Of a DNA stretch of 53,421 nt, positions 1,543-39,322 are shown one piece after another. Position numbers and translations under genes: made by a program. The notes beneath the pieces were generated by a model. That model made no database searches. It saw only the letters and a list, made by a program, of their open reading frames with translations, and was not told the origin of the DNA. Every line of letters begins with the position of its first letter. Positions within the stretch are counted from its first letter, which is position 1. The DNA comes from Candidatus Limnocylindria bacterium (lineage in GTDB: Bacteria; Chloroflexota; Limnocylindria; QHBO01), in assembly GCA_038322875.1 (NCBI GenBank), contig JBBQGI010000004.1:1-53421 (forward strand), read 5' to 3'.

Positions 1543-1619
1543 TGGTGCCCCCAACCGGATTCGAACCGGTGATCTCCACCTTGAAAGGGTGGCGTCCTAG
1601 GCCTCTAGACGATGGGGGC
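1543..1619 (-). tRNA. tRNA-Glu (anticodon TTC), CCA encoded
   Basis: Reverse complement is GCCCCCATCGTCTAGAGGCCTAGGACGCCACCCTTTCAAGGTGGAGATCACCGGTTCGAATCCGGTTGGGGGCACCA: 7-bp acceptor stem, CCACC/GGTGG anticodon stem with TTC, GGTTCGAATCC T-arm. Confidence 0.97.
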
Positions 1620-12667: not shown

Positions 12668-12817
12668 TGCGCGCTCCTGTCCGATGCCTCAGGCGGCCCT
12701 GCCAGCGATTGGAACATCTGGTAGGTGCCGTGCATCAGATGGTAGAAGTGGGTAGGCGTGTCCCCGATACCCCGTTCGTACCGATTTGACCCGGTACCAG
12801 CGGCCTCCGCAGCGTGC

Positions 12818-16740: not shown

Positions 16741-16788
16741 CGCCGGATGATCGCATGCGTGCTACCCTCGGCGGGACAACCCCAAGAG

Positions 16789-16873
16789 CGACAGGGGAGC
16801 GCGCAAGCGCTGAGAGTGCGGGAAGGCCGCAGACCCTCGAACCTGATCTGGGTCATGCCAGCGAAGGGAGTCG
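16789..16873 (+). promoter_or_regulatory. TPP riboswitch
   Basis: GGGGAGC..GCTGAGAG..ACCCTCGAACCTGATCTGGGTCATGCCAGCGAAGGGAG matches the THI-box core; P1 CGAC/GTCG; extended -10 TGCTACCCT at 16760-16768. Confidence 0.95.
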
Positions 16874-16875
16874 GA

Positions 16876-17526
16876 GTGAAAGCAATCGTGGTGGCCGGCG
16901 GCGATGCCGCGCCGGAGGACGCTGCCCTGCTCGCTGGCGCGGAGCTGGTGGTCGCGGCCGACTCGGGCGCCACCTGGCTGGCCGGCCTCGGCGTTCGCCC
17001 CGACGTGGTGATCGGCGATATGGACTCCGTCGACGCATCCCTCCTTGAACGCCTGGAGGCCGATGGTGTCGCGATCGACCGTCACGCGGCGGACAAGGAC
17101 GCCTCCGATGCGGAGCTGGCCGTCGGGCGCGCCATCGGCGCCGGGGCGACCGAAGTCCTGATCCTGGGGGCACTGGGCGGGGAGCGGCTCGACCATGAGC
17201 TGGCGAATCTCCTCCTGCTGGCCGATCACGCATGGAATCAGGCCGCCCTGCGCATCGTGCGAGGTCCCACGACCGTGCGGGCGCTGGGGAGCGGCGACGA
17301 GCTCGAGCTCACCGGCGTCCTCGGCGATCTTGTCACTCTTCTTTCGCTCGGCGCAGACGCGACGGGCGTGCGCACCCGAGGGCTGCGCTATCCGCTGAAC
17401 GGCGAGACGCTCAAGGCAGGTCGCTCGCGCGGCCTGTCAAACCTGGTGACACAGGCACCGGCATCGGTCTCGCTCGAGGCCGGGACATTGCTGGTGATCG
17501 AAACGCGAAAGGGGTTCGGCACATGA
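16876..17526 (+). CDS. thiN: Thiamine diphosphokinase
   Basis: From GTG 16876: VVAADSGA, PDVVIGDMDS, KDASDAELA, GERLDHELAN, GLRYPL, RGLSN. Confidence 0.93.
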   Translation: MKAIVVAGGDAAPEDAALLAGAELVVAADSGATWLAGLGVRPDVVIGDMDSVDASLLERLEADGVAIDRHAADKDASDAELAVGRAIGAGATEVLILGALGGERLDHELANLLLLADHAWNQAALRIVRGPTTVRALGSGDELELTGVLGDLVTLLSLGADATGVRTRGLRYPLNGETLKAGRSRGLSNLVTQAPASVSLEAGTLLVIETRKGFGT

Positions 17527-24977: not shown

Positions 24978-26069
24978 ATGCGATTCCTCCATTTCGCGGA
25001 CCTGCACCTCGACGCTCCCTTCGCCTGGGCACGGCCAGAGACGGCTCGCCGTCGGCGCCGGAATCGCCGCGAAACGCTCACCGCCATCCTGAAGCTGGCC
25101 GACGAAGAGCGCGTTGACGGGATCCTGAGCGCCGGCGACCTGTTCGAGCACGAGCGCTTCACGCCCGACACGGTCGCCTTCCTGCGCGAGAGCTTCGCCC
25201 GCACCGACCGGCCGATCTACCTCACCCCTGGCAATCACGACTGGTACTCGGCGCGCAGCCCGTATGCGCTGGTTGACTGGAGCCCCAACGTCCACCTCTT
25301 CACCGAAGCCCGGCTGACTCCCGTCGAGCTCGCCGACGGGCTGACCCTGTGGGGTGCGGCGCATCGCGCACCGGCCAACACCGGCCCCTTCTTCGCCGAC
25401 TTCCGAGCCGATCGCGGCGGCGTGCACCTCGCCCTGGCGCACGCCTCAGAGCGCAGCGCGCTCCCCTTCCAGGAGTCGGGCAAGGAGCTGCACGCCCCCT
25501 TCGATGCCGGCGAGCTTGAGGCGGCCGGGATCGATCACGCCTTCCTGGGGCACTACCACGTGGCCCGCGACCGCGACCGGTACACCTATCCCGGCAACCC
25601 CGATCCACTCGAGTTCGGCGAGTCGGACGGGCGGGGCATCGTGCTCACAACAGTGGCCGCGGATGGCACCGTCACCCGCGACCGCCGCTCGGTCGCCGTC
25701 AGCCAGGTGCACGACATCGCCGTGGCACTCGACGGATGCCTTCACCTCGACGACCTGCGCGATCGGGTCAGCGGGGCGATCGCCGAACTCTCCGGATCGG
25801 TGCGCATCACCCTCAATGGGGAAGTGCCGGCGGACCTGCCGATCGAGCCGCGCACGCTCGGCGCGCTCGGCGATCACCTCGACGGCCTGGTGGTGCGCGC
25901 CGGCGCCCTGGTGCCGGCCTACGACCTGGACGCGATCAAGGCCGAGACCACCGTGCGCGGCCAGTTCGCGCGCGATGCCCTGCTCATCGAAGATGAGGAT
26001 CGCCGGCGCAAGGTGCTCATCACCGGCCTGCGCGCGCTCGAAGGTCGTCGCGACCTCGAGGTGGCCTGA
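24978..26069 (+). CDS. sbcD: Mre11/SbcD (YhaO-like) metallophosphoesterase nuclease
   Basis: HFADLHLD, AGDLFE, PGNHD, LGHYH, YPGNP. Confidence 0.9.
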   Translation: MRFLHFADLHLDAPFAWARPETARRRRRNRRETLTAILKLADEERVDGILSAGDLFEHERFTPDTVAFLRESFARTDRPIYLTPGNHDWYSARSPYALVDWSPNVHLFTEARLTPVELADGLTLWGAAHRAPANTGPFFADFRADRGGVHLALAHASERSALPFQESGKELHAPFDAGELEAAGIDHAFLGHYHVARDRDRYTYPGNPDPLEFGESDGRGIVLTTVAADGTVTRDRRSVAVSQVHDIAVALDGCLHLDDLRDRVSGAIAELSGSVRITLNGEVPADLPIEPRTLGALGDHLDGLVVRAGALVPAYDLDAIKAETTVRGQFARDALLIEDEDRRRKVLITGLRALEGRRDLEVA

Positions 26070-26070
26070 G

Positions 26071-28611
26071 ATGTGGATCGAACGGGTCATCGCGCGGGCG
26101 TTCGGCCCGCTCCACGACGAGACGCTGCACCTTGGCGAGGGGATGAATGTCATCGGCGGCCCAAATGAGGCCGGCAAGACGAGTTGGCATGCGGCTACGC
26201 GCCTGGCGCTGACCGGCGTGCGACGCGGTCCCGGCCGCACCAAAGAGGTTGCCTCGGTGATCGAGCGCCACCGCCCGTGGGACTCCCCGGACCGTTGGGA
26301 GGTGGAGGCGCGCCTGCACCTGGCCGATGGCCGCGCGGTCGATATCAGCCAGGACCTGGCGGGCAAGGTCGCCTGCCGAGCGCGAGACGTGGTGCTCGGG
26401 GACGACCTCTCGAGCGAGATCATCAACGACGGGACGCCGGACGCGACCATCTGGCTCGGACTGGACCGTGAGTCGTTCGCCGCAGTCGCGGCGGTGAGCC
26501 AGGCCCAGATCATGGCGGTCGCGGAGAGCGCGACCGGCCTCCAGGAGCAGATGCAGCGAGCGGCGGCGACGCGAGGAACGGACGCAACCGCGGCACAGGC
26601 GATCGAGCGGCTCAAGGCGTTTCGCAAGGAGTCCGTCGGAGCCGTCCGGGTCGGCGCCGCGGGCCCGCTTTGGGCAGCCATGCGTGAGCAGGAGGCGGCC
26701 GACGCCGTCCTCGTGGAGGCGCAACGGTCGCACGCGGGATATCTGGATCGCGAGGCCATGCTCGAGGCGGCCTCGCACGAGCACCAGGCCGCCGAGCATG
26801 AGCTGACCGTGGCCGAGGCCGCGCTGGCGGTGCGCGAGGCCACCCAGCTCGCCGAGCGCGCGCAGCGAGCGGCAGCCCTGGCGGCGAGCCATGCGGGTCC
26901 GCCCGCCACCCTGGCGCGGCGTGACGAGCTGGCCGACGAGGTGGCCGCTGCCATCGATTCCTGGCGCAGGCGTCCCTCCCCGGTCCCCCTGACCGGCCCC
27001 ACCGCCGCAGAACTGGAAGCGCAGCTGGCGGCAATCCCCGCGGTCCCAGAGGGAGATCGGCGGCCGGATCGCTCGGTCATAGACGCAGCACGGACCTTCG
27101 ACCTCGCCGAGGACGCGCTGCGCCAGCACCTCGACCGGGCAGCGGTTGCCGACAATCCAACACCCGCCGTCCAGCCCACGTCTCGTCCGTCGAGCCTTCC
27201 CATCGTGGCGGCCGCTGTCGCGGCGATCGCCGGCATCGGGCTGGTGGCGATAGGCCAGGGATTTGCCGGCATCGGGCTGCTGGGCGTCGCGGCCGCGCTC
27301 GGGGCATGGGTGGTCCGGGGACGCGTCGTCTCCGGCGACGCACCCGACGAGCGGGCGGCCGACGAGCTCCTCGCGCGAGCAGCCACTGATTGGGAGGCCC
27401 GGGCACAGAACCTGCGTCTCGCCGCGCAGCAGGCCGATGAGGGCCTGCGTGTCGCTCTCCGAGCACGAGCAGCATCGGACGACGGTGACCTGTCGGCTGT
27501 GTTGGCGGCATATGAGCTCGTCTGTGCACAGCGCGAGGACGTGGCCCGCCTGGCGGCCGGGGCCGAAGCCCTGCGCCGGGCGATCGAGGCGCGGCATGCC
27601 GCCCAGGACGCCACCGCGCGGGCGGAACTGGCCGCGGCCGAAACAGATACCGCGCTGCGGGCTGCGGCACAGCGCCTCGGGGAGGCCGACGCCGGCAGCG
27701 CTCAATCCGTCGTCGAGCGCCTTGTCGCCTGGCAGGGGCGGCGCGCCGAGCAGGCCCGCGCCAGCGAGGTCGCGATCCGCGAGTGGCAGGAGCTCCAGGG
27801 CCTCCTTGGGGGCGGGACGCTGGCCGAGCTCCAGGCCGAGGCGGAGCGGCGCGCACAGGTTGCGGCGCGACTGGCGCGGCGGGTCGGCGACGACGCGATC
27901 ATCCCGGTTGCCGTCGATTCAGAGGTCGCGCTCACCGCCGCTCGCGCGGAGGCCTCCCGCTCCAAGGGGGTGCTTGATGAGCTCAGCGGGGAGCTCCGTC
28001 TGCTGGCCACCTCGTTGCCCGATGTCGCCGAGGCCGAGGAGCGAGCCGGTGCCGTGCGCGCCGAGCTGGGACGGGTCCAGAACCTGGCGGCGGTGATCGA
28101 CGAGACCCTGACGCTGCTGGAGGCAGCCGAGCGCCGCGTGCATCGCGACCTGGCGCCCATCCTGACCGCCTCCGTCCAGCGCCACCTGCCGGCGATCACC
28201 GGCGGCGCGTACGTCGAGGTCGGTATGAATCCGCGGGACCTGTCGGTCGACGTCAAGGAGGCGCGCACGGGCCAATGGCGCGACGCGCGGCTGCTCTCCG
28301 AAGGAACGCGCGAGCAGATCTACCTCCTCCTGCGGGTGGCCATGGCCGAGCACCTGGTGACCACCGACGAGATGGCGCCGCTCCTTCTCGACGAGGTGAC
28401 CGCGCAATCGGATCCCGAGCGAAAGCTCCGCATGCTCGACGTCCTGCACGCGCTCAGCGCGGATCGGCAGGTGATCCTCTTCAGCCACGACGCCGAGGTG
28501 ATGGACTGGGCGGCGCTGGCGCTGCGCGATCCCCGGGATCGGCTGGTCCGGCTGGGTACCGACATTCCCACCGTCACGCCGACCCCCCTGGCCGCGGCCG
28601 CCATCGGCTGA
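26071..28611 (+). CDS. Rad50/SbcC-like (YhaN-type) ATPase with coiled coils and an internal TM hairpin
   Basis: Walker A GPNEAGKT, signature LSEGTREQ, Walker B LLLDE, FSH; hydrophobic hairpin LPIVAAAVAAIAGIGLVAIG..IGLLGVAAALGAWVV. Confidence 0.88.
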   Translation: MWIERVIARAFGPLHDETLHLGEGMNVIGGPNEAGKTSWHAATRLALTGVRRGPGRTKEVASVIERHRPWDSPDRWEVEARLHLADGRAVDISQDLAGKVACRARDVVLGDDLSSEIINDGTPDATIWLGLDRESFAAVAAVSQAQIMAVAESATGLQEQMQRAAATRGTDATAAQAIERLKAFRKESVGAVRVGAAGPLWAAMREQEAADAVLVEAQRSHAGYLDREAMLEAASHEHQAAEHELTVAEAALAVREATQLAERAQRAAALAASHAGPPATLARRDELADEVAAAIDSWRRRPSPVPLTGPTAAELEAQLAAIPAVPEGDRRPDRSVIDAARTFDLAEDALRQHLDRAAVADNPTPAVQPTSRPSSLPIVAAAVAAIAGIGLVAIGQGFAGIGLLGVAAALGAWVVRGRVVSGDAPDERAADELLARAATDWEARAQNLRLAAQQADEGLRVALRARAASDDGDLSAVLAAYELVCAQREDVARLAAGAEALRRAIEARHAAQDATARAELAAAETDTALRAAAQRLGEADAGSAQSVVERLVAWQGRRAEQARASEVAIREWQELQGLLGGGTLAELQAEAERRAQVAARLARRVGDDAIIPVAVDSEVALTAARAEASRSKGVLDELSGELRLLATSLPDVAEAEERAGAVRAELGRVQNLAAVIDETLTLLEAAERRVHRDLAPILTASVQRHLPAITGGAYVEVGMNPRDLSVDVKEARTGQWRDARLLSEGTREQIYLLLRVAMAEHLVTTDEMAPLLLDEVTAQSDPERKLRMLDVLHALSADRQVILFSHDAEVMDWAALALRDPRDRLVRLGTDIPTVTPTPLAAAAIG

Positions 28612-28671
28612 TCCGGGACTCGGCTGCTAGGATTCCGGGACCTCTCATCCGGCCCACGTTGCAGTGAACCG

Positions 28672-29391
28672 ATGCCCAACGACCGCCTCCCGACACCTGA
28701 ACGCGTCCTGGTCGTCGCCGCGCATCCCGACGACATCGAGTTCGGGGCCGCGGGGACGGTGGCGCGCTGGGTCGGGGAGGGAGCCGAGATCCGATACCTG
28801 TTGATGACCCGCGGTGACAAAGGCAGCGACAACCCCGACGCCGACCCTGTGGCTCTCGCAGCCCTGCGGGAGAACGAGCAGCGAGCGGCCGCCGCGGAGA
28901 TCGGTGTAACTGCGGTCGAATTCCTGGATGAGCCCGACGGACAGGTCGAGCCCACCCTGCGGCTGCGGGAGCGCGTGACCCGCGCCATCCGCGCCTTTCG
29001 CCCGGAGATCGTGATGAGCCACGATCCCACCGTGCTCTTCGTGAACAACGAGTGGATCAATCATCCGGACCATCGGGCAGTCGGCACTGTCGTGGTCGAC
29101 GCGGTCTTCCCCACGGCCCGCGACCCGCTCAACTTTCCGGAGCACCTGGCCGCCGGGCTCGGCGCCTGGAAGGTGGCCGAGCTCTTCCTCTGGAGCACCA
29201 ACGATGCAAACCAGTTGGTCGACATTGGGGGCACGCTGGAGCGCAAGATCGCCGCCCTGGCGCACCACGTCAGCCAGTTCAGGGACTTTGGAGAGACCGC
29301 CCGCTGGCTGCGCAGCGGAGCCGAGGAGCTCGGCGAGCGGGCCGGCTACCCGGCGGCGGAGGGGTTCCGACGGGTGATGCTCGCGCGATGA
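28672..29391 (+). CDS. PIG-L/LmbE family deacetylase
   Basis: AHPDDIE, REN E, HPDH; extended -10 TGCTAGGAT at 28625-28633. Confidence 0.92.
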   Translation: MPNDRLPTPERVLVVAAHPDDIEFGAAGTVARWVGEGAEIRYLLMTRGDKGSDNPDADPVALAALRENEQRAAAAEIGVTAVEFLDEPDGQVEPTLRLRERVTRAIRAFRPEIVMSHDPTVLFVNNEWINHPDHRAVGTVVVDAVFPTARDPLNFPEHLAAGLGAWKVAELFLWSTNDANQLVDIGGTLERKIAALAHHVSQFRDFGETARWLRSGAEELGERAGYPAAEGFRRVMLAR

Positions 29392-31334
29392 CACCAGCGC
29401 GCGGCAGGGCGCGGATCGTCTGCTGGCTGCTGCTCGGCGCGATGCTGCTCGCGGCCTGCGCACCAGCCACTCCCGAGCCGAGTGCCGGCGCATCGGCGAC
29501 GCCATCTCCCACCTCTCAGGCAGCCGATGCCGCGCAGCTGGTGGCCCGCAAATTCGTCGCCAATTGGCGTGGCCGCCGCTATGAGCGGATGGTCGAGCTG
29601 ATCGCACCCCACGATCGAGAAGGCACCGCTCCGGATGCGATAGCCGCCCTCCTCAGTCGATTCGATCAGCTGGCCGGCGTAACGCGCCTGGTCGCGGTGG
29701 CGGGCTCCCCGTTCCCGACCAGCGTGTCGAGCGATGACGCCCGACTGGGCCCATCCCCCGCCTACGAGGTCCCGATCAGCCTCGACTTCGAAACCAACCG
29801 CTTTGGCCCCGTCTCCTTTCGACGGATGCTCACCCTGACCCAGGGCGCCGACGGGTGGCACGCGCGTTGGCGACCGTCCCTCCTCTTTCCACAGCTCGGC
29901 GACGGCGACAGCCTGTCGCTGCAGCGAACGGTGAGCCCTCGCGGTCGCATCGTGTCGGTCGATGGCTCCGTCTTTGCCGAGACGCGCGAGGACGGCATGC
30001 GGGTCTATCCCCAGGAATCGCTCGCCGGCCAGACGATTGGGTACGTCGCGCCGGTGACGGCCGACGAGGTGGCGGCGCTCCCCCCGACGGCGGACTACGA
30101 GGCCGGTGACCTGATGGGGCGCAGCGGCCTGGAGCAGGGAGCGGAGGATCTGTTGCGCGGCAGTCCCGGCCTCGCCCTGCAGGCGGTCCCGCCCAGTGGC
30201 GATCCCGTGCCGCTTCTGGAGCGCGCAATGATCCCGGGCGCGGACGTGTCAATAACGATCCGGGCGAACATCCAGGCCACCGCCGAGGCTGCCCTGGCCC
30301 CGTACGTCGATGCCGCCACGGCGGTGATCGACCCGAAGAGCGGCGACGTCTGGGCGCTCGCTTCGGCTCCGAGCTTCAATCCGAACTCGATGACCATTGG
30401 CACCACCCTGGCCGGAGCACAGCTGACCAAGGCGACCGAGGGTGCCCGATTCAATCGCGCCGTGCTGGCTGCATACCCCGCCGGGTCGAGCTTCAAGCCG
30501 TTCACCCTGCTCGCCGCCTTGAAGACCGGCGTGGCCAGTCGTGCGACCCGCATGTCGTGCTTGGGCACCTGGACCTTCCAGGGCTTCACCTTCCACAACT
30601 ACAAGGATCACACCCTGGGGGGCAGCGTCTCGCTCGCCGAGGCGATGGCCTTCAGCTGCAACACGACCTACATGCCGCTCTCGATCAAGGTCTGGGACGC
30701 GGACCGTACGGCGCTGACGAACCTGGTCGAGCAATTCGGCTTCGGCCAGTCAGCCGGCATGGCCCACCTCGCCGACAACCCCGGAATCCTGCCCGACGCC
30801 GCCTACTTCGAGGTGACCAAGCGTGGCAACGGCGGCTACTCGCCGTACGGGCCGTTCGACCAGATCCAGCTTGCGATCGGGCAGGGCTCCTTCCTCGGCA
30901 CGCCGCTGCAGCTCGCCAACGCCTACGCAGCGTTCGGCAATGGTGGAATCCTGTGGCAGCCGCGGATCGTGACCCAGGCGGTGCTCCCCGCCGGGAAGGT
31001 CGTCGAAGCCATCGCGCCGCACGTCGTGCGCCAGGTCGACATCGCGCCCGAGCAGCTCGACTACCTGGCGGAGACGCTCCACGCAGTCAGCACCCTCTCG
31101 TACGGCACGGCGCATCGCGCCTTCGCCGGCTTCGGGATCCCGGTTGCCGGCAAGAGCGGCACCGCCGAGACCGGCACGCCCAGGCCGGACGCATGGTTCC
31201 CCGCCTATGCGCCGATCGGCGGCGCCGAGATCGCGGTCGCCACGGTCCTGGTCCACGTGAAGCTGGCGACCGGTGGCACCGATGCGGCGCCTCTCGTTCG
31301 ACGGGTGATGGCCCGCTACTTCACCGACAGATAG
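29388..31334 (+). CDS. Class B penicillin-binding protein (NTF2/MecA_N-like + transpeptidase), lipoprotein-like
   Basis: LLAAC lipobox; PRGRI; SxxK (SSFK), SxN (SCN), KSGT. Confidence 0.9.
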   Translation: MTPARGRARIVCWLLLGAMLLAACAPATPEPSAGASATPSPTSQAADAAQLVARKFVANWRGRRYERMVELIAPHDREGTAPDAIAALLSRFDQLAGVTRLVAVAGSPFPTSVSSDDARLGPSPAYEVPISLDFETNRFGPVSFRRMLTLTQGADGWHARWRPSLLFPQLGDGDSLSLQRTVSPRGRIVSVDGSVFAETREDGMRVYPQESLAGQTIGYVAPVTADEVAALPPTADYEAGDLMGRSGLEQGAEDLLRGSPGLALQAVPPSGDPVPLLERAMIPGADVSITIRANIQATAEAALAPYVDAATAVIDPKSGDVWALASAPSFNPNSMTIGTTLAGAQLTKATEGARFNRAVLAAYPAGSSFKPFTLLAALKTGVASRATRMSCLGTWTFQGFTFHNYKDHTLGGSVSLAEAMAFSCNTTYMPLSIKVWDADRTALTNLVEQFGFGQSAGMAHLADNPGILPDAAYFEVTKRGNGGYSPYGPFDQIQLAIGQGSFLGTPLQLANAYAAFGNGGILWQPRIVTQAVLPAGKVVEAIAPHVVRQVDIAPEQLDYLAETLHAVSTLSYGTAHRAFAGFGIPVAGKSGTAETGTPRPDAWFPAYAPIGGAEIAVATVLVHVKLATGGTDAAPLVRRVMARYFTDR

Positions 31335-31347
31335 CGGGGCGGTTGCT

Positions 31348-31377
31348 TTGACACCTGCTCCCCGTGACGGATACCAT
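31348..31377 (+). promoter_or_regulatory. Sigma70-type promoter of the oxidoreductase-Rieske/cytb operon
   Basis: TTGACA (31348-31353), 18-nt spacer, TACCAT (31372-31377). Confidence 0.75.
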
Positions 31378-31430
31378 CGAGCCGCCGCTGAATCGCTTCG
31401 GCAACCCGTGGTGAAACCCGCTCTGCGACT

Positions 31431-33410
31431 GTGCCAGTGATCTCCGCCAACGCCATCCCGCTGAGATTCCAGACCGCCGAGGTCGGCGTGGACTGGCTCC
31501 AGTGCAATATCGAGTGCCAGGAAGGCTGCCCGGTCAATACCAATTGCCGGGGCTACCTGATGCTGGCCGCCGAGGGCCGGTTCGAGGAGGGCTACATCCT
31601 GGCCCGGGACCCGAACCCGGTCGCGGCCATCTGTGGCTACGTGTGCAGCGCCCCCTGCGAGAAGGCCTGCCGCCGCGGCGACATCGACAAGCCCCTCTCG
31701 ATCAGGGCCATGAAGCGCTTCCTGGTCGACTGGCATTACGGCAACAACATGCCGGACAACGTCGTGGTCGCGGAGCCGAGCGGGAAGAGCGTGGGCGTCA
31801 TCGGTGCCGGACCTGCCGGCCTGACGGTCGCCAAGGAGCTGGCCAGCTACGGCCACAAGGTCGACATCTACGAGGCGCTGCCGTCCGGCGGCGGGACCTG
31901 CCTGATCGGCGTTCCGGCCTTTCGGCTGCCGCGCGACGTGATCGAGCTGGACGTGAACTGGGTCGCCAAGCACGGCGTCGACTTCCACTACAACGTCGAG
32001 GTCGGGCGCGACATCACCCTCGACCAGCTGCGTGAGCGTCATGACGCGGTCGTGGTCTCTGCCGGCTGCATGTACCCGGTCGCCATGAACGTTCCAGGCG
32101 AGGAGCTCGATGGCGTGATCTACGGCGTCGACTTCCTGAAGCGTGCAAACCTGGGCGAGGAGCAGTGGGTCGGCGATCACGTTGTGATCGTGGGCGGCGG
32201 CTATACCGCCATGGACTCGGCACGCACCGCGCTGCGCATCGGCGCCAAGACCAGCACCATCGTCTACCGCCGTGGACCCGAGGAGATGGTGGTCGACGAG
32301 GAGGAGCAGCACGAGACCCGCTTCGAGGGCGTCAAGTTCGATTTCTTCAGCTCGCCGGTCGGCATCGTCAGCGATGACGCCGGGCACGTCACTGGGATCA
32401 CCTTCCAGCGCACGCGCCTCGGCCCGCCCGATGCCAGCGGACGTCGCAGTGCCGAGCCGATCGCGGGCAGCGACTTCACGCTGCCATGCGACATGGTCAT
32501 CCCGTGCACCAGCCAGGCATCCGACAACAACGTGCTGGGCGAGTACGGCGCCAAGCTGAACCGCCACCTGGGCGTCACCGATACCCGCGAGTTCGTGCCG
32601 GGCGGATCTGTCTCGTCGTGGCGAACGCCACCGCTCAACGGCACCACTCCGGTCGGCCCGGACGGCAAGAAGTACAACGCGCTGCAGTTCGAGCTCGCGC
32701 GTGGCTACGTCGTCGCCCAGGCGGACACGTTCCAGACCAGCGTCTCCGGGATCTTCGCCTGCGGCGACTTCGTGACCGGCCCGGCCACCATCATCGAGGC
32801 TGCCGGACGAGGACGACGCACCGCGCGCGCCGTCGACCGTTGGCTGCTCGGCGTGCGCGGGGCCGAGCTCGAGGAGCTGCCGGTCATCAACCGGGCCGTC
32901 ATCACCCAGGCGCTCGAGCACGACATGCCCGACAAGTACGAGGCGATCGAGCGCCAGCACATCCCCATGGCCCCGCCCGAGATGCGCCGCGACTTCACCT
33001 CCCTGGTGGAGGTGGGCTACGACACGCGCAGCGCCATCTCCGAAGGGCAGCGCTGCCTCCAGTGCAATCACAACATCAACATCGACGGGCCGCGCTGTAT
33101 CCTGTGCGGGCTCTGCGCCGATGTCTGCCCCGAGGGCGTGATCTACATGATCGACAAGGGGCAGGTCGGCGGCGACGACCCGGAGATCGACCTCTTCCAG
33201 TCATGGCCGCGGGGAATCGCCATGATCATCGACGAAGAGCGCTGCATCCGGTGCAACCTCTGCGTCGAGCGGTGTCCGACCAACTGCATCACCATGGACC
33301 GCCTCGAGCTCGAGCGAATCACGCCTGACGGAAAGGTGCTCTTGGAGAGCTACAAGGACAACGTGCTGGGGCAGATCGGCCAGGAGGCCGGCATGGCGGT
33401 CCAGCGATGA
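31431..33410 (+). CDS. NAD(P)H/FAD-dependent Fe-S oxidoreductase (GltD/NfnB/DsrL-like) with C-terminal 2x[4Fe-4S] domain
   Basis: [21 protein letters not shown]; GAGPAG; GGGYTA; YRR; ACGDFVTGP; RCLQC; [12 protein letters not shown] and [12 protein letters not shown]; no signal peptide. Confidence 0.9.
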
Positions 33411-34141
33411 CCTTCCCAGGGCCGGGCGACCTGATCCGGGTCGTCAAGGAGTCGGCGGCCTGGCGCAGCCTCTTCCGCCAACCCTATCCGACCACCAGTC
33501 GCACCCGCGCCCTGGCGGTGATGAACAACGTCTTCCTGCACCTGCACCCGGTGCGCGTCAAGAAGCACGCGGTGCGCTACACCTACACCTTCTGCCTGGG
33601 CGGGGTCAGCTTCTTCCTGTTCCTGGTGCTGACCGTCACCGGCGTCTACCTGATGTTCTTCTATGTGCCGTCGGTGACACGCGCCTACCAGGACATCCTG
33701 TCGATCGAGAACTCGGTCGCCTTCGGCTCGTTCGTGCGCAACATGCACCGCTGGGGCGCGCACCTGATGGTGCTCACCGTCTTCCTGCACATGATCCGGG
33801 TCTTCTACCACGGGGCCTACAAGCCGCCGCGCGAGTTCAACTGGCTGATCGGCGTGATCCTCCTCTTCTGCACGTTGTGGCTGAGCTTCACCGGCTACCT
33901 CCTGCCATGGGACCAGATCGCGTTCTGGGCGATCACGGTCGGCTCGCAGATGGCCACCTACGCGCCGCTGCTCAGCAAGGAGTCGAGCTTCATCCTTCTC
34001 GGCGGGGTGGAGGTCGGCCAGGGGACCCTGATCCGCTTCTACGTCATGCACGTGATCGCATTCCCGTTGATCACCGCCATCCTGATGGTCGTCCACTTCT
34101 GGAGGATCCGGAAGGACGGCGGCATCTCAGGCCCGGTCTGA
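33407..34141 (+). CDS. petB: Cytochrome b6-type subunit (N-terminal half of a split cytochrome b)
   Basis: FCLGG (heme ci Cys); heme His pairs MHRWG..FLH (14 apart) and MHV..VVHF (15 apart, b6-like); GYLLPWDQ; GISGP end. Confidence 0.92.
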
Positions 34142-34160
34142 GAAGAGCCGAGGTAGACCG

Positions 34161-34775
34161 ATGACCATCGAGAAGCGACCAAATGCGACGGCCGACAAGA
34201 ACGCGCCGACCCAGGCGCCGCGCCTCCCTGCCGTCGAGCGCGATCGTGGACCGAAGCTGCCCGGCCCGCCCGGCGTGCCGGGGACCGAGCGCTTCCGGCT
34301 GCTCGCCTACGTCAAGCAGGAGTCGATGGTGCGCGTCGACAAGCGCCCCGACGAGACGGTCCTGACCTGGCCGCACCTGCTGCGCGCCGAGTTCCTGATG
34401 GCGCTCCTGATCACCGTCCTGCTGGTCGTCGCCTCGGTCTTCATCGCCGCCCCGCTCGAGGAGATGGCGAACGCCGGCGTGACGCCGCACGTGGCCAAGG
34501 CGCCGTGGTACTTCCTCGGGCTGCAGGAGCTGCTCAGCTACTTCAATGCCACCGTCGGTGGCGTGCTGCTCCCGACTCTCTACCTGGTCGGCCTGGCGAT
34601 CATCCCGTATGTCGACCGCTCGCCGTACAAGGCGGCCCGTGACCGCAAGACGATCTGGGTCTTCTTCCTGGCGCTGATGCTGGGCGGGCTGCTGATCACC
34701 CTCATCGGCTCGTTCTTCCGCGGCCCCGGCTGGAACTGGGTCTGGCCCTGGGACGGGCTCTACTTCACGCTATGA
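34161..34775 (+). CDS. petD: Subunit IV (PetD/QcrC-like C-terminal half of cytochrome b)
   Basis: TWPHLL; TPHVAKAPWYFLGLQELL (PEWY-equivalent); IIPYVDRS. Confidence 0.88.
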   Translation: MTIEKRPNATADKNAPTQAPRLPAVERDRGPKLPGPPGVPGTERFRLLAYVKQESMVRVDKRPDETVLTWPHLLRAEFLMALLITVLLVVASVFIAAPLEEMANAGVTPHVAKAPWYFLGLQELLSYFNATVGGVLLPTLYLVGLAIIPYVDRSPYKAARDRKTIWVFFLALMLGGLLITLIGSFFRGPGWNWVWPWDGLYFTL

Positions 34776-35386
34776 GCCACCTGCCGACCTACGGCGAGGT
34801 ACCCGGGCGGCCGGTCGGCGAGATGACCAGGCGCAACTTCATGCGCCGCATCTTCTGGGTCGGCGCCGGCCTGCTCTCGATCGAATTCCTGGCGGGCACC
34901 GTCAACTTCCTGTGGCCGAATGTGCGCAGCGGCCTCGGCGGCAAGTTCACGATCGGCAAGGCCGCCGACATCGCCAGCGCGCAGCCGACCTGGACCGAGG
35001 GGCAGCCATTCGCCTTCGCCAAGGCGCGCGTCTTCTTCATCAATGTTCCGGCGTCGGAGTCGCTCGTCAGCGGCAGCAACGAGAAGGTGGCGGATCCGGG
35101 CGCCAGCGTCCTGGCGCTCTACCGCAAGTGCCCGCACCTCGGCTGCAACATCCCGCCGCTGTGCGATAAGAGCCTCTGGTTCGAGTGCCTCTGCCACGGC
35201 AGCAAGTACACCATCATCGGCGAGAAGCGAGCCGGTCCGGCGCCGCGCGGGATGGATCGCTTCGCCGTCACCGTGACCGATGGCACCTACGGGATCGACA
35301 CAAGCTCACTCGTCGCCGGACCGCCCATCGGCACCGCCACCTTCGACCCGCGCGACACGACCACGATTCCGCACTGCGCGGCCTGA
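34772..35386 (+). CDS. petC: Rieske [2Fe-2S] subunit with Tat signal/anchor
   Basis: TRRNFM twin-arginine motif plus TM; CPHLGC and CLCHGSKY; GPAPRGM. Confidence 0.92.
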   Translation: MSHLPTYGEVPGRPVGEMTRRNFMRRIFWVGAGLLSIEFLAGTVNFLWPNVRSGLGGKFTIGKAADIASAQPTWTEGQPFAFAKARVFFINVPASESLVSGSNEKVADPGASVLALYRKCPHLGCNIPPLCDKSLWFECLCHGSKYTIIGEKRAGPAPRGMDRFAVTVTDGTYGIDTSSLVAGPPIGTATFDPRDTTTIPHCAA

Positions 35387-35389
35387 GCA

Positions 35390-36238
35390 ATGCGGATCAA
35401 GACGCTCGGCATCGTCCTGATGAGCGCCATGGCCCTCTTCACCGCCTTCTACTGGGTCACCGACCCGGCTCGTCGCGAGAGCGCCTACGAGAACCAGGTC
35501 AAGGAGCTGGTCGCCTACGGCGAGGAGATGTTTGGGCCGCCGACCGCGGCGAACGACCATACCGCCAACTGTGCCGCCTGCCATGGCGCCGACGGGACCG
35601 GCGGCCCCGTCGGTGACACCGGCCGAGTGGCGCCGAACCTCCACTCGTCGAGCATCTACGACAAGCTGAAGGCCCAGAACGGCGGCTCGTTCACCGACAT
35701 CCGCAAGCCGGGCGATCCGCCCGACTACGTCAACCTGGTGATCCGCTTTGGCGGCGTAGTCGTCTCCGGCGACGTCAACTCTCCGATGCCGGCCTGGAGC
35801 TCAGAGATTGGCGGCGCGCTGACGATCAACCAGATCGACGCCCTCACCGCACTCGTCGAGACCTGGGCGCTGGAGGCCGGTGCGCTGCCGCGGGTCGACG
35901 TGCCCGATACCGTCGAGGCAGGCCAGAAGGTCTACACCGACTCAGGGTGCGGCGGCTGTCACGGGCCGCAGCTGGCGGGGATCCCGGGCACGTTCCCGAG
36001 CCTGGAGAACATCGGCAACCAGCCCGTCACCGAGCTGCCGACGCCGATCAGCCACCTCGACCAGCTGCAGGCCGACTACGCGGCCGACGCGCGCGCCTTC
36101 CTCGATCGTTGGATTCGCGACTCGGCGGTGAACTACAACGACGGCACCGCGACCGGCATGCCCGTGCACCCAGAAGGGAAGATCAGCAAATCGGCCCTGC
36201 AGGCCCTGATCACCTTCCTCTTGAGCCAGAAGCAGTGA
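35390..36238 (+). CDS. Membrane-anchored diheme cytochrome c
   Basis: N-terminal TM; CAACH and CGGCH; distal Met candidates in SPMPAW and TGMP. Confidence 0.9.
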   Translation: MRIKTLGIVLMSAMALFTAFYWVTDPARRESAYENQVKELVAYGEEMFGPPTAANDHTANCAACHGADGTGGPVGDTGRVAPNLHSSSIYDKLKAQNGGSFTDIRKPGDPPDYVNLVIRFGGVVVSGDVNSPMPAWSSEIGGALTINQIDALTALVETWALEAGALPRVDVPDTVEAGQKVYTDSGCGGCHGPQLAGIPGTFPSLENIGNQPVTELPTPISHLDQLQADYAADARAFLDRWIRDSAVNYNDGTATGMPVHPEGKISKSALQALITFLLSQKQ

Positions 36239-36245
36239 GGCGCTC

Positions 36246-36821
36246 ATGACCGCCTACACCGTCCCGCCGCGCCGCGACCTGATCTCACGCGTCGCCCGCG
36301 AGATCGACGACTTCATGAGCTGGATGCTCTACGGCTCGGAGACGTGGCTGGTCGCGCTGCTGAAGGGCGTCCCCTTGCTGCTCTTCATCTACTTTGCGCT
36401 GGGCTACATCCCCAACTACGCGAACACCATCACGACCCTCTACCTGGGCTTCGGCAAGGACGTCGGCTTCCTGGTGGCAGTGGTGCTGATCGGCGGGCCG
36501 ACCTTTACCCTAATCCTGATCCTGGCCCTGTGGACCCAGGCGGCCCGTGGTCGCCGCGGCTTCGCCTGGTCGCTGATCAGGTTCCTGGACTTCCTGCAAT
36601 ACGTCGCGGTCGTGCTGGCGATCATCCCGTTCATGCTCTTCAACCTGGCCGGCGGCAGCCTCATCCCGCCGCTCTTTCCGCTACAGGCGCTGGCGCTCGG
36701 CGCGATGGCGGTTGGCGGCGGGGCGATGGGCCTCGCCTACCTGTACTTCGAATACCGCCGCATCAGCCGACGCGAGGCTGAGACTGCCGCCGCTGCGACC
36801 GCCGCCTGGCGCGGCGGATAG
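36246..36821 (+). CDS. Integral membrane protein of unknown function (about 4 TM)
   Basis: 7 nt after the cytochrome c stop; four hydrophobic segments. Confidence 0.8.
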   Translation: MTAYTVPPRRDLISRVAREIDDFMSWMLYGSETWLVALLKGVPLLLFIYFALGYIPNYANTITTLYLGFGKDVGFLVAVVLIGGPTFTLILILALWTQAARGRRGFAWSLIRFLDFLQYVAVVLAIIPFMLFNLAGGSLIPPLFPLQALALGAMAVGGGAMGLAYLYFEYRRISRREAETAAAATAAWRGG

Positions 36822-37174
36822 CTCGCCCCACGACCAGCTCCCGGCTGCTCCTCGCCCATCTCGCCTGGTCGCTTCTGGTCCTCGCCCTCGCCGGCGCCCT
36901 GGTCGGCGTGGAGGTGGGCAGCGCCTGTCCCCCCGGTGGGCCACTCGCCTTCGGCGATTGCCTGCGGGTACGGCCCTTCGCGCTGGGCGTGCTGGGCCTG
37001 GCCGCTGTCCTCTACGTCGCCGGCCTGTCGGCCGTGCTCGCCTGGGTCGGTCGCCTACAGCGCCGCGGCGTGGCCGATCGCAGGGCGGCGCGCGACTGGT
37101 ACATGCTGGCCGCAGTCGTCGGGCTGCCGGTGGCTCCTCTCCTCGCATTCACCCTCGTCTCGGCGCTCCGGTAG
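36818..37174 (+). CDS. Small membrane protein (about 3 TM); start uncertain (ATA 36818 or GTG 36908)
   Basis: The frame is open upstream of GTG 36908 and encodes a further TM helix (LLLAHLAWSLLVLALAGALVGV); Cys pair in CPPGGPLAFGDC. Confidence 0.6.
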   Translation: MARPTTSSRLLLAHLAWSLLVLALAGALVGVEVGSACPPGGPLAFGDCLRVRPFALGVLGLAAVLYVAGLSAVLAWVGRLQRRGVADRRAARDWYMLAAVVGLPVAPLLAFTLVSALR

Positions 37175-37183
37175 CATAGCCGC

Positions 37184-38638
37184 ATGACCTCGGCCAGCTC
37201 GGATGTCCTCCTCGCCAGCCTGAACGGGACCGCACGCATCGCGGGCTCGCGCCTGGAGGTGAGCGATGCTCCGCGCTTCCGGGCCGAGGCGATCGACTGG
37301 CTGGTCGAAGATGCGGTCTTCAACCCCGATGAGGCCCTGCGCGATGCCGCGCGCTGGCTGATCTGGAGCGCCTCGCAGGCGCTCGGCTGCGGCTCGACCA
37401 GCATCTACGACCTGTATATGGCGCGCGGCCGCGGCGACTTCCCACCGAGGCGCTTCACGATCCCGGCCATCAACGTGCGTGCTGCCGCCTACCTGACCGC
37501 GCGCCAGGCGTTCACCGCCGCGCTCGAGCGAGATGCCGGTGCGGTCATCTTCGAGATCGCCAAGTCCGAGATGTCCTACACCGACCAGCGCCCCGCCGAA
37601 TACGCCGCGGTCATCCTGGCCGCGGCGATCCGCTCGGGCTGGCTCGGGCCGGTCTTCCTGCAGGGTGACCATTTCCAGTTCAACGCCACGAAATGGGCGG
37701 CCGATCCGGGCGACGAGATGAGCGGCCTCAAGCAGCTCACCAGCGAGGCGGTGGCGGCCGGATTCCTGAACATCGACATCGACAGCAGCACGCTGGTCGA
37801 CCTTTCCAGGCCGAGCGTGGCGGAGCAGCAGGCGCTCAACGCCACCAACACCGCGGAGCTGACGGAGCTGATCCGCTTCATCCAGCCTGATGGCGTGACG
37901 ATCAGCATCGGCGGCGAGATCGGTGAGGTGGGGAAGGCCAACTCCACCGAGGAGGAGCTGCGCGCCTACCTTGGCGGCTATTTCGGAATCCTGCACGGCT
38001 CGGGCCTGCCGGGGATCAGCAAGGTGAGCATCCAGACCGGCACCAGCCACGGAGGCGTCGTGCTGCCTGACGGCAGCGTGGCGGAGGTGAGCATCGACTT
38101 CGACACCATGCAGCGCCTCTCGACGGTGGCGCGCGACGAGTACGGCCTGGCCGGTGCGGTCCAGCACGGCGCGAGCACCCTGCCGGATGAGGCGTTCCAC
38201 CACTTCCCCTTGAATGGCACCGCGGAGATCCACCTGGCCACCGGCTTCCAGAACATCCTGTATGACGACGGCGGGCTGCCCGCTGCAGTCCGCGCCGAAA
38301 TGATGGCCTGGTGCCTCGCCCACTGCGCGGACGAGCGCAAGCCCGGCGAGACCGATGAGCAGTTCCTGTACAAGACGCGCAAGAAGGCGATCGGGCCGTT
38401 CAAGCAGGCGCTCTGGACCCTCCCCGCCGATGCTGAGGCGCAGATCGGCGCCAACCTGCACGCCAAGTTCGGCCTGCTCTTCGACGAGCTGGGGATCGCC
38501 GGCACGCGCTCGGTGGTGGACCGATGGGTGACAATCCCCGACCTGCCGCGACCCCTGCCGGTGGCGCTGGGCGGTGGGGCGGAGCGGGCCGAGTTGGCGG
38601 GGGCATCGGCCTTCGAGGACGACGGGTCAGGCGAGTAG
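37184..38638 (+). CDS. fba: Class II fructose-bisphosphate aldolase (long form)
   Basis: PAINVR, FEIAKSE, QGDH, GGEIGEVG, GTSHGG, VQHGAST, EIHLATGFQN. Confidence 0.88.
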   Translation: MTSASSDVLLASLNGTARIAGSRLEVSDAPRFRAEAIDWLVEDAVFNPDEALRDAARWLIWSASQALGCGSTSIYDLYMARGRGDFPPRRFTIPAINVRAAAYLTARQAFTAALERDAGAVIFEIAKSEMSYTDQRPAEYAAVILAAAIRSGWLGPVFLQGDHFQFNATKWAADPGDEMSGLKQLTSEAVAAGFLNIDIDSSTLVDLSRPSVAEQQALNATNTAELTELIRFIQPDGVTISIGGEIGEVGKANSTEEELRAYLGGYFGILHGSGLPGISKVSIQTGTSHGGVVLPDGSVAEVSIDFDTMQRLSTVARDEYGLAGAVQHGASTLPDEAFHHFPLNGTAEIHLATGFQNILYDDGGLPAAVRAEMMAWCLAHCADERKPGETDEQFLYKTRKKAIGPFKQALWTLPADAEAQIGANLHAKFGLLFDELGIAGTRSVVDRWVTIPDLPRPLPVALGGGAERAELAGASAFEDDGSGE

Positions 38639-38660
38639 CAACCGTCGTGGCGTCGCCGTC

Positions 38661-38826
38661 CACATCGTCAGCCTATTACCTCCCGTGCTGCATCGGCACA
38701 TTTGGCCCTGCTGGCGTGCGCTTTCAGCACCTGGCGTGCTGCCACAAGGCGCAAACAGACGGATTCGACCCGAGGAACAGCCCCCGCGTGCTGTAGTAGC
38801 ACCATGGGTAATAGGCCGGCGTTGTG
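38661..38826 (+). ncRNA. Candidate 6S-like RNA (long rod with central bubble)
   Basis: 38661-38680 pairs with 38807-38826 (includes a perfect GCCTATTACC/GGTAATAGGC); inner stem GTGCTGC..CGGCAC/GTGCTG..GTAGCAC; asymmetric bubble; apical GCGCTTT/AAGGCGC and CAGCAC/GTGCTG. G.U pairs favour the + strand. Confidence 0.6.
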
Positions 38827-38890: not shown

Positions 38891-39322
38891 CTAGTGGCAG
38901 CCGCCTGCCTTGGCAGGGGAGCCATCTGTGTTGAAGGAGGAGCCGCACGAGCAGCTGCTCACCGCGTTGGGGTTGTTGATCGCGAAGCCGGAGCCCATCA
39001 GCGAGTCGACGTAGTCGATCTCGGCGCCGGCCACGTGCTGGGCGCTGAAGGCGTCGATCACGATCGGCACGCCGGCGTGGTCCTCGACGCGGTCATCCTC
39101 TGCGAACTTGTCGTCGAACGCCAGGCCGTAGCTGTAGCCGGAGCATCCGCCGCTCTTGACGAAGAGGCGCAGGGCCGCATCGGCCTTGCCTTCGCGCGAG
39201 CGCAGCTCCTGCACCTTGACCGCGGCCGCCTCGGTCATGCTGACCAGCAGCTCGGTCGTGGGTGCGGGAGCGACGGCCGGAGCCGAAGGGGCTGTCTGCG
39301 GCGTCGATTCAGTCATCGTCAT
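38891..39322 (-). CDS. erpA: A-type Fe-S carrier (ErpA/IscA/HesB)
   Basis: SGGCSGYSY, IDYVDSLMGSGF, NPNA..CSCGSSF; GAGGAG RBS. Confidence 0.93.
   Translation of the reverse strand: MTMTESTPQTAPSAPAVAPAPTTELLVSMTEAAAVKVQELRSREGKADAALRLFVKSGGCSGYSYGLAFDDKFAEDDRVEDHAGVPIVIDAFSAQHVAGAEIDYVDSLMGSGFAINNPNAVSSCSCGSSFNTDGSPAKAGGCH

Follow-up and report, generated by a model that had tools for sequence, protein, structure and literature searches.

In the 'APWY clade' of cytochromes b of Kao and Hunte (2014) no member had at that time been characterised in vitro or in vivo; reverse operation was suggested for the clade, and its partner Rieske proteins were predicted to have a Mid+ to high redox potential (PMC4122944). 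Dibrova et al. (2013/2017) described a 'subfamily G', in which short cytochromes b co-occur with large iron-sulfur (Fe-S) proteins that bind nicotinamide adenine dinucleotide or its phosphate (NAD(P)), both in planctomycete operons and 'in many other cases' (PMC5600118). Among the members, the Kuenenia anammox complexes Kustd1480-1485 and Kuste4569-4574 have been studied best; all subunits of the latter are reported to co-migrate, and two anammox Rieske proteins have been measured at +303 and +335 mV (PMC12954380). Here we describe an operon of this kind from a Candidatus Limnocylindria bacterium of soil or freshwater (Chloroflexota; QHBO01; GCA_038322875.1), found in the stretch of DNA, referred to below as the window, that covers positions 1-53,421 of contig JBBQGI010000004.1. 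The operon is compact, lies on the + strand at approximately 31348-37174 and comprises seven tightly packed open reading frames (ORFs), which encode a flavo-Fe-S protein, a b6-type cytochrome b, subunit IV, a Rieske protein, a diheme cytochrome c and two further membrane proteins. A preliminary description of the window, made by reading its letters, had proposed this content and order; all seven ORFs lie where it had put them, and Pfam and NCBIfam scans confirmed their identities, except for the two small membrane proteins, which matched no family.

The association of such a flavoprotein gene with Rieske and cytochrome b genes, Chloroflexi included, has already been published (PMC5600118, PMC4122944), and the operon is a new member of the group. 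We consider it very probable that it belongs to the NAD(P)-oxidoreductase-linked Rieske/cytochrome b family. Since the quinol oxidation (Qo) motif of subunit IV, here K-A-P-W-Y-F, is what defines the APWY clade, the encoded complex is by its motif a member of that clade, or subfamily G, with which it shares a small, split cytochrome b, a Rieske protein of Mid+ to high predicted potential and a patchy spread over many phyla that include the Chloroflexi. The preliminary description had allowed that the same operon might already be characterised. Its gene association is indeed in print, as cited above, but we found in the literature no biochemically characterised operon of this kind, nothing relevant on respiration in Limnocylindria, and, apart from PMC12954380, neither a structure nor an assay of a complex of this type.

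In a Brocadia locus (L080) with the Kustd gene order, the flavoprotein is 38% identical to that of the window over 619 amino acids (E 1e-133), and the identities of cytochrome b, subunit IV and the Rieske protein are 56%, 42% and 28% respectively; by these matches the Brocadia counterpart of Kustd1480-1485 is an ortholog of the Limnocylindria complex, and the flavoprotein is orthologous to Kustd1483/Kuste4570. Kartal 2013 and de Almeida 2016 reportedly also treat the anammox complexes that include an NAD(P) oxidoreductase subunit. The anammox complexes and the one described here have in common the CxGG cysteine of heme cn, the APWY Qo motif, a Ser-type Rieske box II, the YRR motif of the flavoprotein, an N-terminal histidine of cytochrome b (His45 here, His62 in Kuenenia) and an Arg-Lys pair. 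The Limnocylindria operon encodes a diheme class I cytochrome c where the anammox complexes have hexa- or octaheme proteins, and no partner resembling hydroxylamine oxidoreductase (HAO); its subunit IV has three transmembrane helices, with 87 residues following the Qo motif, while that of Brocadia has five, with 189 residues. The gene order is flavoprotein, cytochrome b, subunit IV and Rieske protein in the window, and Rieske protein, cytochrome b, flavoprotein and subunit IV in Brocadia, and the N-terminal domain of the flavoprotein has eight cysteines compared with five. The Limnocylindria host is without anammox metabolism, and its operon adds two lineage-specific membrane proteins.

Direct homolog listings for the flavoprotein and cytochrome b contained relatives of at least 83% identity only, and said little about distribution. 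A search of 1.84 billion cluster representatives with the flavoprotein gave 3756 relatives at E <=1e-30; about a third of the best 150 of these are stand-alone proteins of approximately 600 amino acids with a C-terminal dicluster domain. With an 11-sequence profile (A2) we collected 80 loci from contigs of one genome per species, and their six-frame ORFs were searched with the proteins of the operon. The genes for cytochrome b, subunit IV and the Rieske protein directly adjoin the flavoprotein gene in 53 of the 80 loci, spread over about ten phyla. Most of the unlinked loci (21 of 27) have a flavoprotein match of another architecture, for example long Fdh/Hdr-type fusions or truncated matches, and among the 59 loci of the same architecture 53 are linked, two end at a contig edge (one of them with a Rieske match there) and only four are unlinked. 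Of four further representatives at approximately 40% identity, three are linked, one with the gene order of the window and a diheme cytochrome c, one with a receiver domain, and one with a fused cytochrome b and an octaheme cytochrome c, while the fourth (P0244) lies beside a nitroreductase gene.

Three gene orders were found among the linked loci. The order of the window occurs in Limnocylindria, Acidimicrobiia and Ardenticatenales; flavoprotein, Rieske protein, cytochrome b and subunit IV follow each other in many Acidobacteriota and in Victivallales, Planctomycetia, Abyssobacteria, Zixibacteria and Verrucomicrobia; and the third order is that of Brocadia. The position of the Rieske gene after cytochrome b, which the preliminary description had remarked on, is real and conserved across several lineages, as the placing of the Rieske gene after subunit IV is kept in Limnocylindria, Acidimicrobiia, Ardenticatenales and a further locus (L087). 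The neighborhood survey proposed in that description therefore bears out the linkage, in 53 of the 80 loci, in 53 of the 59 with the same architecture and in three gene orders, which supports the conclusion that the association of flavoprotein and cytochrome b is not due to chance and that the Rieske/cytochrome b genes have in the flavoprotein a partner of their own.

Two of the surveyed operons carry additional domains or genes. At 1429-3621 of L088 (P0246) an N-terminal response-regulator receiver domain is fused to a cytochrome-b-linked flavoprotein of the YRR type, which hints that the complex of this lineage could be under phosphorylation control. In L087, where the operon has the order of the window, the gene for the diheme cytochrome c is followed at 11844-12884 by one for an EB_dh protein (ethylbenzene dehydrogenase gamma-like, heme b).

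The cytochrome b of the window has heme ligands at His114, His128, His215 and His230, with the 14-residue spacing in helix D that is typical of the b6 type. Upstream of its Pfam domain, which starts at residue 58, it has the motif N-V-F-L-H45-L-H-P. We found His45 in all 54 linked cytochromes b; it corresponds to His62 of Kustd1481, a numbering that was checked via the Brocadia ortholog, in which the histidine is residue 62 and the R-K of WRVRKDGG is residues 266/267. In the AlphaFold3 models of Hauser et al. (2025), His62 is a ligand of a novel b heme at the dimer interface, and Arg266 and Lys267 are its charge partners (PMC12954380). The cytochrome b of the window also keeps the R-K pair, in WRIRKDGG, and by analogy its complex may contain the extra interface heme.

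The cysteine of heme cn (or heme ci) is less widely conserved than His45. The preliminary description had recognised it in cytochrome b, and alignment confirms it as Cys63 in F-C63-L-G-G (CxGG); it occurs in 20 of the 54 linked cytochromes b, those of Limnocylindria and Brocadia only, and in addition in L087 and L088, and is absent from all 34 of the other clade. The same description had proposed a supercomplex that either injects electrons of NAD(P)H at Qi/heme ci or reduces NAD(P)+ by reverse or bifurcating flow. The partnership of the genes has stood up, being conserved in the 53 linked loci, whereas heme ci as the coupling point in general has not, and with the cysteine missing from 34 linked cytochromes b, heme cn was rejected as a universal coupling site. 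The presence of the cysteine goes together with the nucleotide-binding motif of the neighboring flavoprotein: V-Y-R-R is paired with it in 22 of 23 cases, the exception (L086) combining YRR with TWGLGG, and all 34 flavoproteins with (C/S/A)-L-E are paired with a cytochrome b that has no such cysteine. The arginines of YRR would suit a 2'-phosphate and indicate specificity for NADP(H), and an acidic residue ending strand beta-2 would, by the usual Rossmann rule, suit NAD(H). This near-perfect pairing points to two matched subtypes, an NADP(H)-type with heme cn and an NAD(H)-like type without it.

His54 of cytochrome b and His72 of subunit IV are also conserved within the cn-bearing type, as is Glu77 in the W-P-H-L-L-R-A-E77-F of subunit IV, which is retained in Brocadia (RKEF) and variable in the other clade. 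Hauser et al. model a glutamate as an axial ligand (PMC12954380), and the conservation of Glu77 in the cn-bearing type fits this. KAPWY itself is common to both types: of the 52 surveyed loci in which a subunit IV was detected, that of Brocadia among them, only L035 departs from it (KAAWY). New here are the presence of His45 in every linked cytochrome b, the pairing of nucleotide motif and cn cysteine, and the breadth of the distribution.

These observations bear on the possibility that there is no physical coupling at all, and that the flavoprotein is a soluble reductase that passes electrons from NADPH to a one-electron carrier and is merely co-transcribed with the bc genes. Close homologs without cytochrome b do exist. 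The flavoproteins of Thermomicrobiales/Sphaerobacteraceae (L018, 9713-11806, and L020), the nearest homologs in Chloroflexota other than Limnocylindria, have no adjoining cytochrome b gene, and a rubredoxin-like domain (PF21349) is found at their N-terminus. Further unlinked cases are L059, L072 and P0244, the last of which was mentioned above. They suggest that the flavoprotein is an NADPH module able to serve other one-electron partners. We nevertheless judge mere co-transcription highly improbable, as the genes have stayed adjacent over about ten phyla and three gene orders, the stop codon of the flavoprotein gene overlaps the start of cytochrome b, nucleotide motif and cn cysteine co-vary (none of the 34 flavoproteins with xLE is paired with the cysteine), and co-migration of the subunits is reported for the anammox complex (PMC12954380).

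In a neighbor-joining tree the linked flavoproteins stand apart from fused GltD-like modules with a bootstrap support of 58%. The clade of Acidobacteria, the Planctomycetes-Verrucomicrobia-Chlamydiae (PVC) group and Acidimicrobiia is supported by 100%, as is that of Limnocylindria, while the grouping of Limnocylindria with Brocadia and Thermomicrobiales has 46%; the Thermomicrobiales homologs nest beside Limnocylindria though they are unlinked. The tree therefore groups the flavoprotein with Brocadia and separates it from the fused GltD-like modules; with bootstrap values of only 46-58%, however, the monophyly of all cytochrome-b-linked flavoproteins is not established.

The flavoprotein consists of an NfnL/GltD-type N-terminal domain for two [4Fe-4S] clusters, a site for flavin adenine dinucleotide (FAD), the NADPH site with V-Y-R-R and, at the C-terminus, a ferredoxin domain for a further 2x[4Fe-4S]. 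Two CxxCxxCxxxCP motifs are present, and the cysteines suffice for four Fe-S clusters. Neither a signal peptide nor a transmembrane helix was found in it, and the only segment marked as hydrophobic coincides with the Fe-S motif; the domains, the FAD and YRR sites and the missing signal peptide are thus as the preliminary description had read them. In all Limnocylindria eight cysteines (25, 29, 33, 39, 68, 72, 76 and 80) are present in the N-terminal cluster domain (31431-31680 in the window), against five in Brocadia and Thermomicrobiales and six in most other linked homologs, so lineages may differ in which clusters this domain holds or how they are ligated.

An AlphaFold2 model built on a shallow alignment of near-identical flavoproteins was unusable (predicted local distance difference test, pLDDT, 30.8), and a diverse alignment (A1, 54 sequences) was used instead. 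The resulting model has a pLDDT of 85.8 and a predicted template modelling (TM) score of 0.86, and is disordered only in an inserted loop (379-423) and the C-terminal tail. Foldseek aligned it over the whole length with 9n5u_A, 8oh5_C and 9bov_A as best matches, at TM-scores of 0.65-0.67 (0.67 for 9n5u_A). Sequence matches in the Protein Data Bank are led by the NfnA subunit of Thermococcus NfnABC (9n5u_A, 1e-96) and include Caldicellulosiruptor NfnABC and Sporomusa StnC, followed by Thermotoga maritima NfnB (4ylf_B, 2e-84), Pyrococcus furiosus NfnL and GltD. The N-terminal two-cluster domain, the FAD site and the NADPH YRR site are shared with the NfnL-like module of NfnABC/StnABC (Bfu family) and of NfnSL/NfnAB. 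Unlike those systems, the locus lacks both the NfnB/C or NfnA/S partners and an Fdh/NuoG-like domain, and its flavoprotein adds the small C-terminal ferredoxin domain and is tied to genes of membrane cytochromes. Two other identities were considered and rejected: all GltD/gltA models score far under their cut-off (for example 311 against 472) and no GltB gene is nearby, which does not fit glutamate synthase, and the NfnAB/NfnSL transhydrogenase would require, beside the NfnB-like module that is present, an NfnA/S partner (FNR-like, [2Fe-2S]; FNR, ferredoxin-NADP+ reductase) that is missing.

The preliminary description had noted that flavoproteins of the NfnB family can bifurcate electrons. 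In a complex of that sort, which would resemble FixABCX, the FAD would split the electrons of NADPH between a soluble low-potential ferredoxin, reached through the N-terminal clusters, and the hemes or quinone, reached through the C-terminal clusters. The module is homologous to bifurcating NfnB/NfnL, as the match to 4ylf_B illustrates, the flavin domain lies between two distinct domains that bear clusters, and the joint reduction of menaquinone and ferredoxin by NADPH would be energetically feasible. Its best structural matches, however, are the large subunits of NfnABC/StnABC, where the module serves as an NADPH port that does not bifurcate, with one electron path at the FAD (PMC12018979), and the AlphaFold3 models of the anammox complexes show a single linear chain of four clusters (PMC12954380). 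No NfnA/S-like gene was found in the operon or, in close relatives, within 10 kb, and no ferredoxin gene is present in the operon. Given the single-path module, the missing partner and the linear chain in the models, we regard flavin-based bifurcation as highly improbable.

The Rieske protein has a twin-arginine translocation (Tat) motif, TRRNFMR, in agreement with the Tat signal of the preliminary description, and the cluster-binding boxes CPHLGC (box I) and CLCHGSKY (box II). Box II has CHGS-Y, as in the window and in Limnocylindria, or CHGS-F in 52 of 53 loci. By a published rule S-Y and S-F mark Rieske proteins of Mid+ to high potential (PMC4122944, PMC12954380), and the Rieske protein of the window is accordingly predicted to be of the high-potential type. 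The two CxxCH motifs and the anchor of the diheme cytochrome c proposed earlier were also found (CAACH at 61, CGGCH at 187 and an N-terminal hydrophobic anchor). The number of CxxCH motifs in the periplasmic partner varies: there are two in the subclade of the window and one elsewhere in Limnocylindria, whereas Acidobacteriota, the PVC group and Brocadia have 6-10.

The reading that we favor, though we give it somewhat less than an even chance, is that quinol bifurcation at the Qo site drives the reduction of NADP+, as proposed for the anammox complexes. The operon would encode a single b6f-like membrane complex with the NADP(H)-binding flavo-Fe-S subunit on its cytoplasmic face. Menaquinol would be oxidised at the Qo site with its APWY motif, and the first electron would run downhill to the high-potential Rieske protein, the anchored diheme cytochrome c and a terminal oxidase, while the second would be pushed through hemes bp and bn. 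Part or all of this second electron would not be returned to quinone but would leave on the cytoplasmic side, by way of heme cn, the His45 interface heme or both, and travel along a wire of four [4Fe-4S] clusters to the FAD and on to NADP+. The overall reaction of quinol, oxidised cytochrome c and NADP+ would be reversible, and the pull of oxygen on cytochrome c would give NADPH without cost in proton-motive force.

The main argument for NADP+ reduction that can be drawn from the sequences is energetic, namely the predicted high-potential Rieske protein throughout phyla presumed to use menaquinone. A Rieske protein with the potentials measured in anammox would give enough drive to push the second electron to approximately -320 mV, a surplus that an ordinary Q cycle does not need. 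The phyla that carry the operon presumably use menaquinone, and if so the excess driving force would fit a b-heme branch of very low potential. The traits on which the NAD(P)H-producing model of the anammox complexes was based, His45, the R-K pair and cysteines for four clusters, are kept here (PMC12954380), and the idea of a linear wire fits the single-path NADPH port of NfnABC/StnABC (PMC12018979).

Several points weigh against this reading. Biochemical data are limited to the anammox members, and the reaction is unproven even there. Limnocylindria and Acidobacteria are presumed to be aerobic heterotrophs with other sources of NAD(P)H, for which the need for a quinol-driven reduction is unclear. 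The redox potentials are deduced from two residues, the extra interface heme is seen only in AlphaFold3 models of another group, and the use of menaquinone by the Limnocylindria bacterium itself is presumed. Finally, the retention of heme cn, of Glu77 and His72 in subunit IV and of His54 in cytochrome b could mean that there is a working quinone site on the n-side, which would short-circuit the reduction of NADP+.

Such a site would also allow the electrons to run in the opposite direction, from NADPH through the four clusters and hemes cn and bn to menaquinone at the n-side, so that the assembly would act as a non-pumping NADPH dehydrogenase joined to complex III, in sum an NADPH:cytochrome c oxidoreductase. 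An analog is the input of FNR or ferredoxin into b6f proposed in cyclic electron flow. This direction is thermodynamically downhill, and Cys63, Glu77, His72 and His54 are all conserved within the cn-bearing type, where a histidine near heme cn would make sense for quinone reduction (PMC12954380). As presumed heterotrophs the hosts have reduced nucleotides to oxidise, and the sister clade has its NADH-like motif (C/S-L-E) in aerobic heterotrophic phyla, for which the oxidation of NADH is an obvious need. It would leave the predicted high-potential Rieske protein in presumed menaquinone-using phyla unexplained (PMC4122944), and entry via heme cn cannot be general since 34 of the 54 linked complexes are without it. 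A simple type II NADH dehydrogenase (NDH-2) would also suffice for the purpose, and it has been argued that the loss of energy makes this direction unlikely in anammox bacteria (PMC12954380). On balance we consider forward feeding of this kind the main rival, but rather unlikely for the Limnocylindria complex.

A full reversal of the path proposed for NADP+ reduction can also be envisaged, in which electrons from reduced cytochrome c and from NADPH would meet at the Qo site and reduce menaquinone, so that high-potential periplasmic donors could feed the quinone pool. It would need no cofactors other than those already discussed. The operon, however, provides a diheme cytochrome c only, with no periplasmic oxidoreductase for a substrate, the neighboring genes are of housekeeping type, and NADPH would be spent on quinone with no evident gain for an aerobic heterotroph; such a confurcation has very little likelihood here.

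Compared with the cyanobacterial and chloroplast b6f complex, the one described here has a similar cytochrome b, with four helices, hemes spaced as in b6 and the cysteine of heme cn, a separate three-helix subunit IV and, as in b6f with bound FNR, an NADP(H) flavoenzyme proposed at the n-side. It differs in having APWY in place of PEWY at the Qo site, an N-terminal extension of cytochrome b that carries His45, and an operon-encoded flavoprotein that is an NfnL/GltD-type Fe-S protein and not a plant-type FNR; genes for cytochrome f and PetG/L/M/N were not found. A canonical b6f complex was rejected on the grounds of the APWY motif, the diheme class I cytochrome as c-type partner, the lack of cytochrome f and the small membrane proteins that match no family. 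With the actinobacterial bcc complex (QcrCAB) it shares a membrane-anchored diheme cytochrome c as a high-potential outlet in a bacterium presumed to use menaquinone. Its cytochrome b is split and of APWY type, while that of bcc is long and of PDWY type (PMC4122944). The QcrC-like match of the cytochrome c is weak, at 39 bits against a cut-off of 200, and bcc was rejected as an identity.

The cytochrome b also passes, by a margin of 6 bits, the NCBIfam model NF040969 for ExtP (296 bits against a cut-off of 290), and the public name given to its homologs by the Prokaryotic Genome Annotation Pipeline, 'selenite/tellurite reduction operon b-type cytochrome ExtP', rests on this margin. Geobacter ExtOPQ is itself counted among the APWY clade/subfamily G complexes; the ext cluster of Geobacter comprises multiheme cytochromes, a porin and a rhodanese, and no flavoprotein (PMC5877670). 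The Geobacter ExtOPQ identity, which would call for ExtO, ExtQ, ExtH-N and ExtS beside ExtP, was rejected: beside the marginal ExtP hit, ExtQ scores 62 against 150 and no match to ExtO was obtained, and the rhodanese, porin and multiheme genes of the ext cluster are all absent from the locus. We therefore regard the ExtP label as misleading for this cytochrome b, whose resemblance appears to be at the level of the family only.

If the flavoprotein is truly wired to the low-potential heme chain, bc complexes could turn quinol oxidation into NAD(P)H, or the reverse, beyond the Q cycle, and for bacteria that are among the most abundant in soil and freshwater, redox balance and energy yield would have to be modelled differently. 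In its broadest form this would make pyridine-nucleotide-coupled bc complexes a widespread third operating mode, with two matched versions, a His45 heme as outlet and NAD(P)H obtained from quinol by Qo bifurcation without cost in proton-motive force. We regard this generalisation as doubtful; were it true, the hosts would be abundant aerobic soil and freshwater Limnocylindria, Acidobacteriota, Acidimicrobiia and Planctomycetota-Verrucomicrobiota, and the system would not be an anammox curiosity. The version in the window has the simplest composition seen here, with five core subunits, a diheme cytochrome c and a subunit IV of three helices but without an HAO-like partner, and may be more tractable than the anammox complexes for expression, structure determination and assays. 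The pairing of nucleotide motif and cn cysteine and the universal His45 offer concrete handles for mutation and spectroscopy.

The window has a G+C content of approximately 69%, and its proteins are nearest to those of metagenome-assembled genomes labelled Chloroflexota or Candidatus Limnocylindria. The positions of the operon genes and of other features are listed in Table 1.

Table 1. Positions of the operon, its promoter and other features within the window
Feature	Position	Strand	Remarks
tRNA-Glu, anticodon TTC	1543-1619	-	
Thiamine pyrophosphate (TPP) riboswitch	16783-16886	+	RF00059, 67 bits (gathering score 54); unrelated to the operon, which lies far downstream
Genes for SbcD/Mre11-like phosphoesterase, SbcC/SMC-like ATPase, PIG-L deacetylase and PBP2-type transpeptidase (PBP, penicillin-binding protein)	24978-31334	+	
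Sigma-70-like promoter	31348-31377	+	-35 TTGACA 31348-31353, 18-nt spacer, -10 TACCAT 31372-31377
NADPH flavo-Fe-S protein, 657 amino acids (659 from GTG 31431)	31437-33410	+	Fer4_20, Pyr_redox_2, C-terminal dicluster Fer4
Cytochrome b, b6-type, four helices, 244 amino acids	33407-34141	+	PF00033, 1.5e-43
Subunit IV, 204 amino acids, 3 transmembrane helices	34161-34775	+	PF00032
Tat-exported Rieske [2Fe-2S] protein, 204 amino acids	34772-35386	+	PF00355
Membrane-anchored diheme class I cytochrome c, 282 amino acids	35390-36238	+	PF00034, two matched stretches
Membrane protein, 191 amino acids, ~4 transmembrane helices	36246-36821	+	No Pfam or NCBIfam match
Membrane protein, 88 amino acids, 2 transmembrane helices	36908-37174	+	No Pfam or NCBIfam match
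Class II aldolase-like gene, 484 amino acids	37184-38638	+	Weak PF01116, 40 bits
IscA/HesB-type Fe-S assembly gene	38891-39322	-	PF01521; convergent with the operon

The genes of the operon overlap or lie close together, and are translationally coupled. Both ATGA junctions of the preliminary description can be read directly, between the flavoprotein stop and the cytochrome b start (cgATGAcc, 33407-33410) and between the subunit IV stop and the Rieske start (ctATGAgc, 34772-34775), and the remaining intergenic gaps are 19, 3, 7 and 86 nt. Alignment and the gene calls in near-identical contigs show that the conserved start of the flavoprotein is GTG 31437 and not 31431. The strong promoter announced for the operon fared less evenly. 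TTGACA-18-TACCAT is the sole consensus match within 31000-38800, but one match against 0.7 expected in shuffles is not significant alone. The -10 element, ACGGRTASCATCG, is kept at the same position in the upstream alignment of six relatives (L001-L006), most of which also retain a TTG... -35 element, and because of this conserved position upstream of the gene the promoter is probably real. A scan of the operon leader against Rfam gave no match.

The two membrane proteins at the end of the operon appear to be lineage-specific. The protein of 191 amino acids has only 612 homologs; none of the 120 listed bears an informative name, and their few organism labels are almost all Chloroflexota/Limnocylindria. 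Among the surveyed loci its gene lies downstream of the operon in L001-L006 only, and that of 88 amino acids is kept in L001-L005 (L006 ends before it) and was also called in L081.

The operon is surrounded by housekeeping genes, which comprise the SbcCD-like pair, the PIG-L deacetylase, the PBP transpeptidase and the aldolase-like, IscA, aminotransferase and transketolase-like genes. The upstream genes (24978-31334) are syntenic in the near-identical contigs L081-L083. The aldolase-like gene starts 10 nt past the last membrane-protein gene and may share a transcript with the respiratory operon; its synteny extends to L001-L005, L081 and L082, and beyond the closest relatives it is absent. In three separate lineages a gene of the IscA/HesB type (PF01521) is found no more than a few kb from the flavoprotein gene, namely in the window, in the Thermomicrobiales locus L018 (12228-12689) and in L087 (3687-4052), and may be a dedicated helper for the insertion of clusters into the four-cluster flavoprotein.

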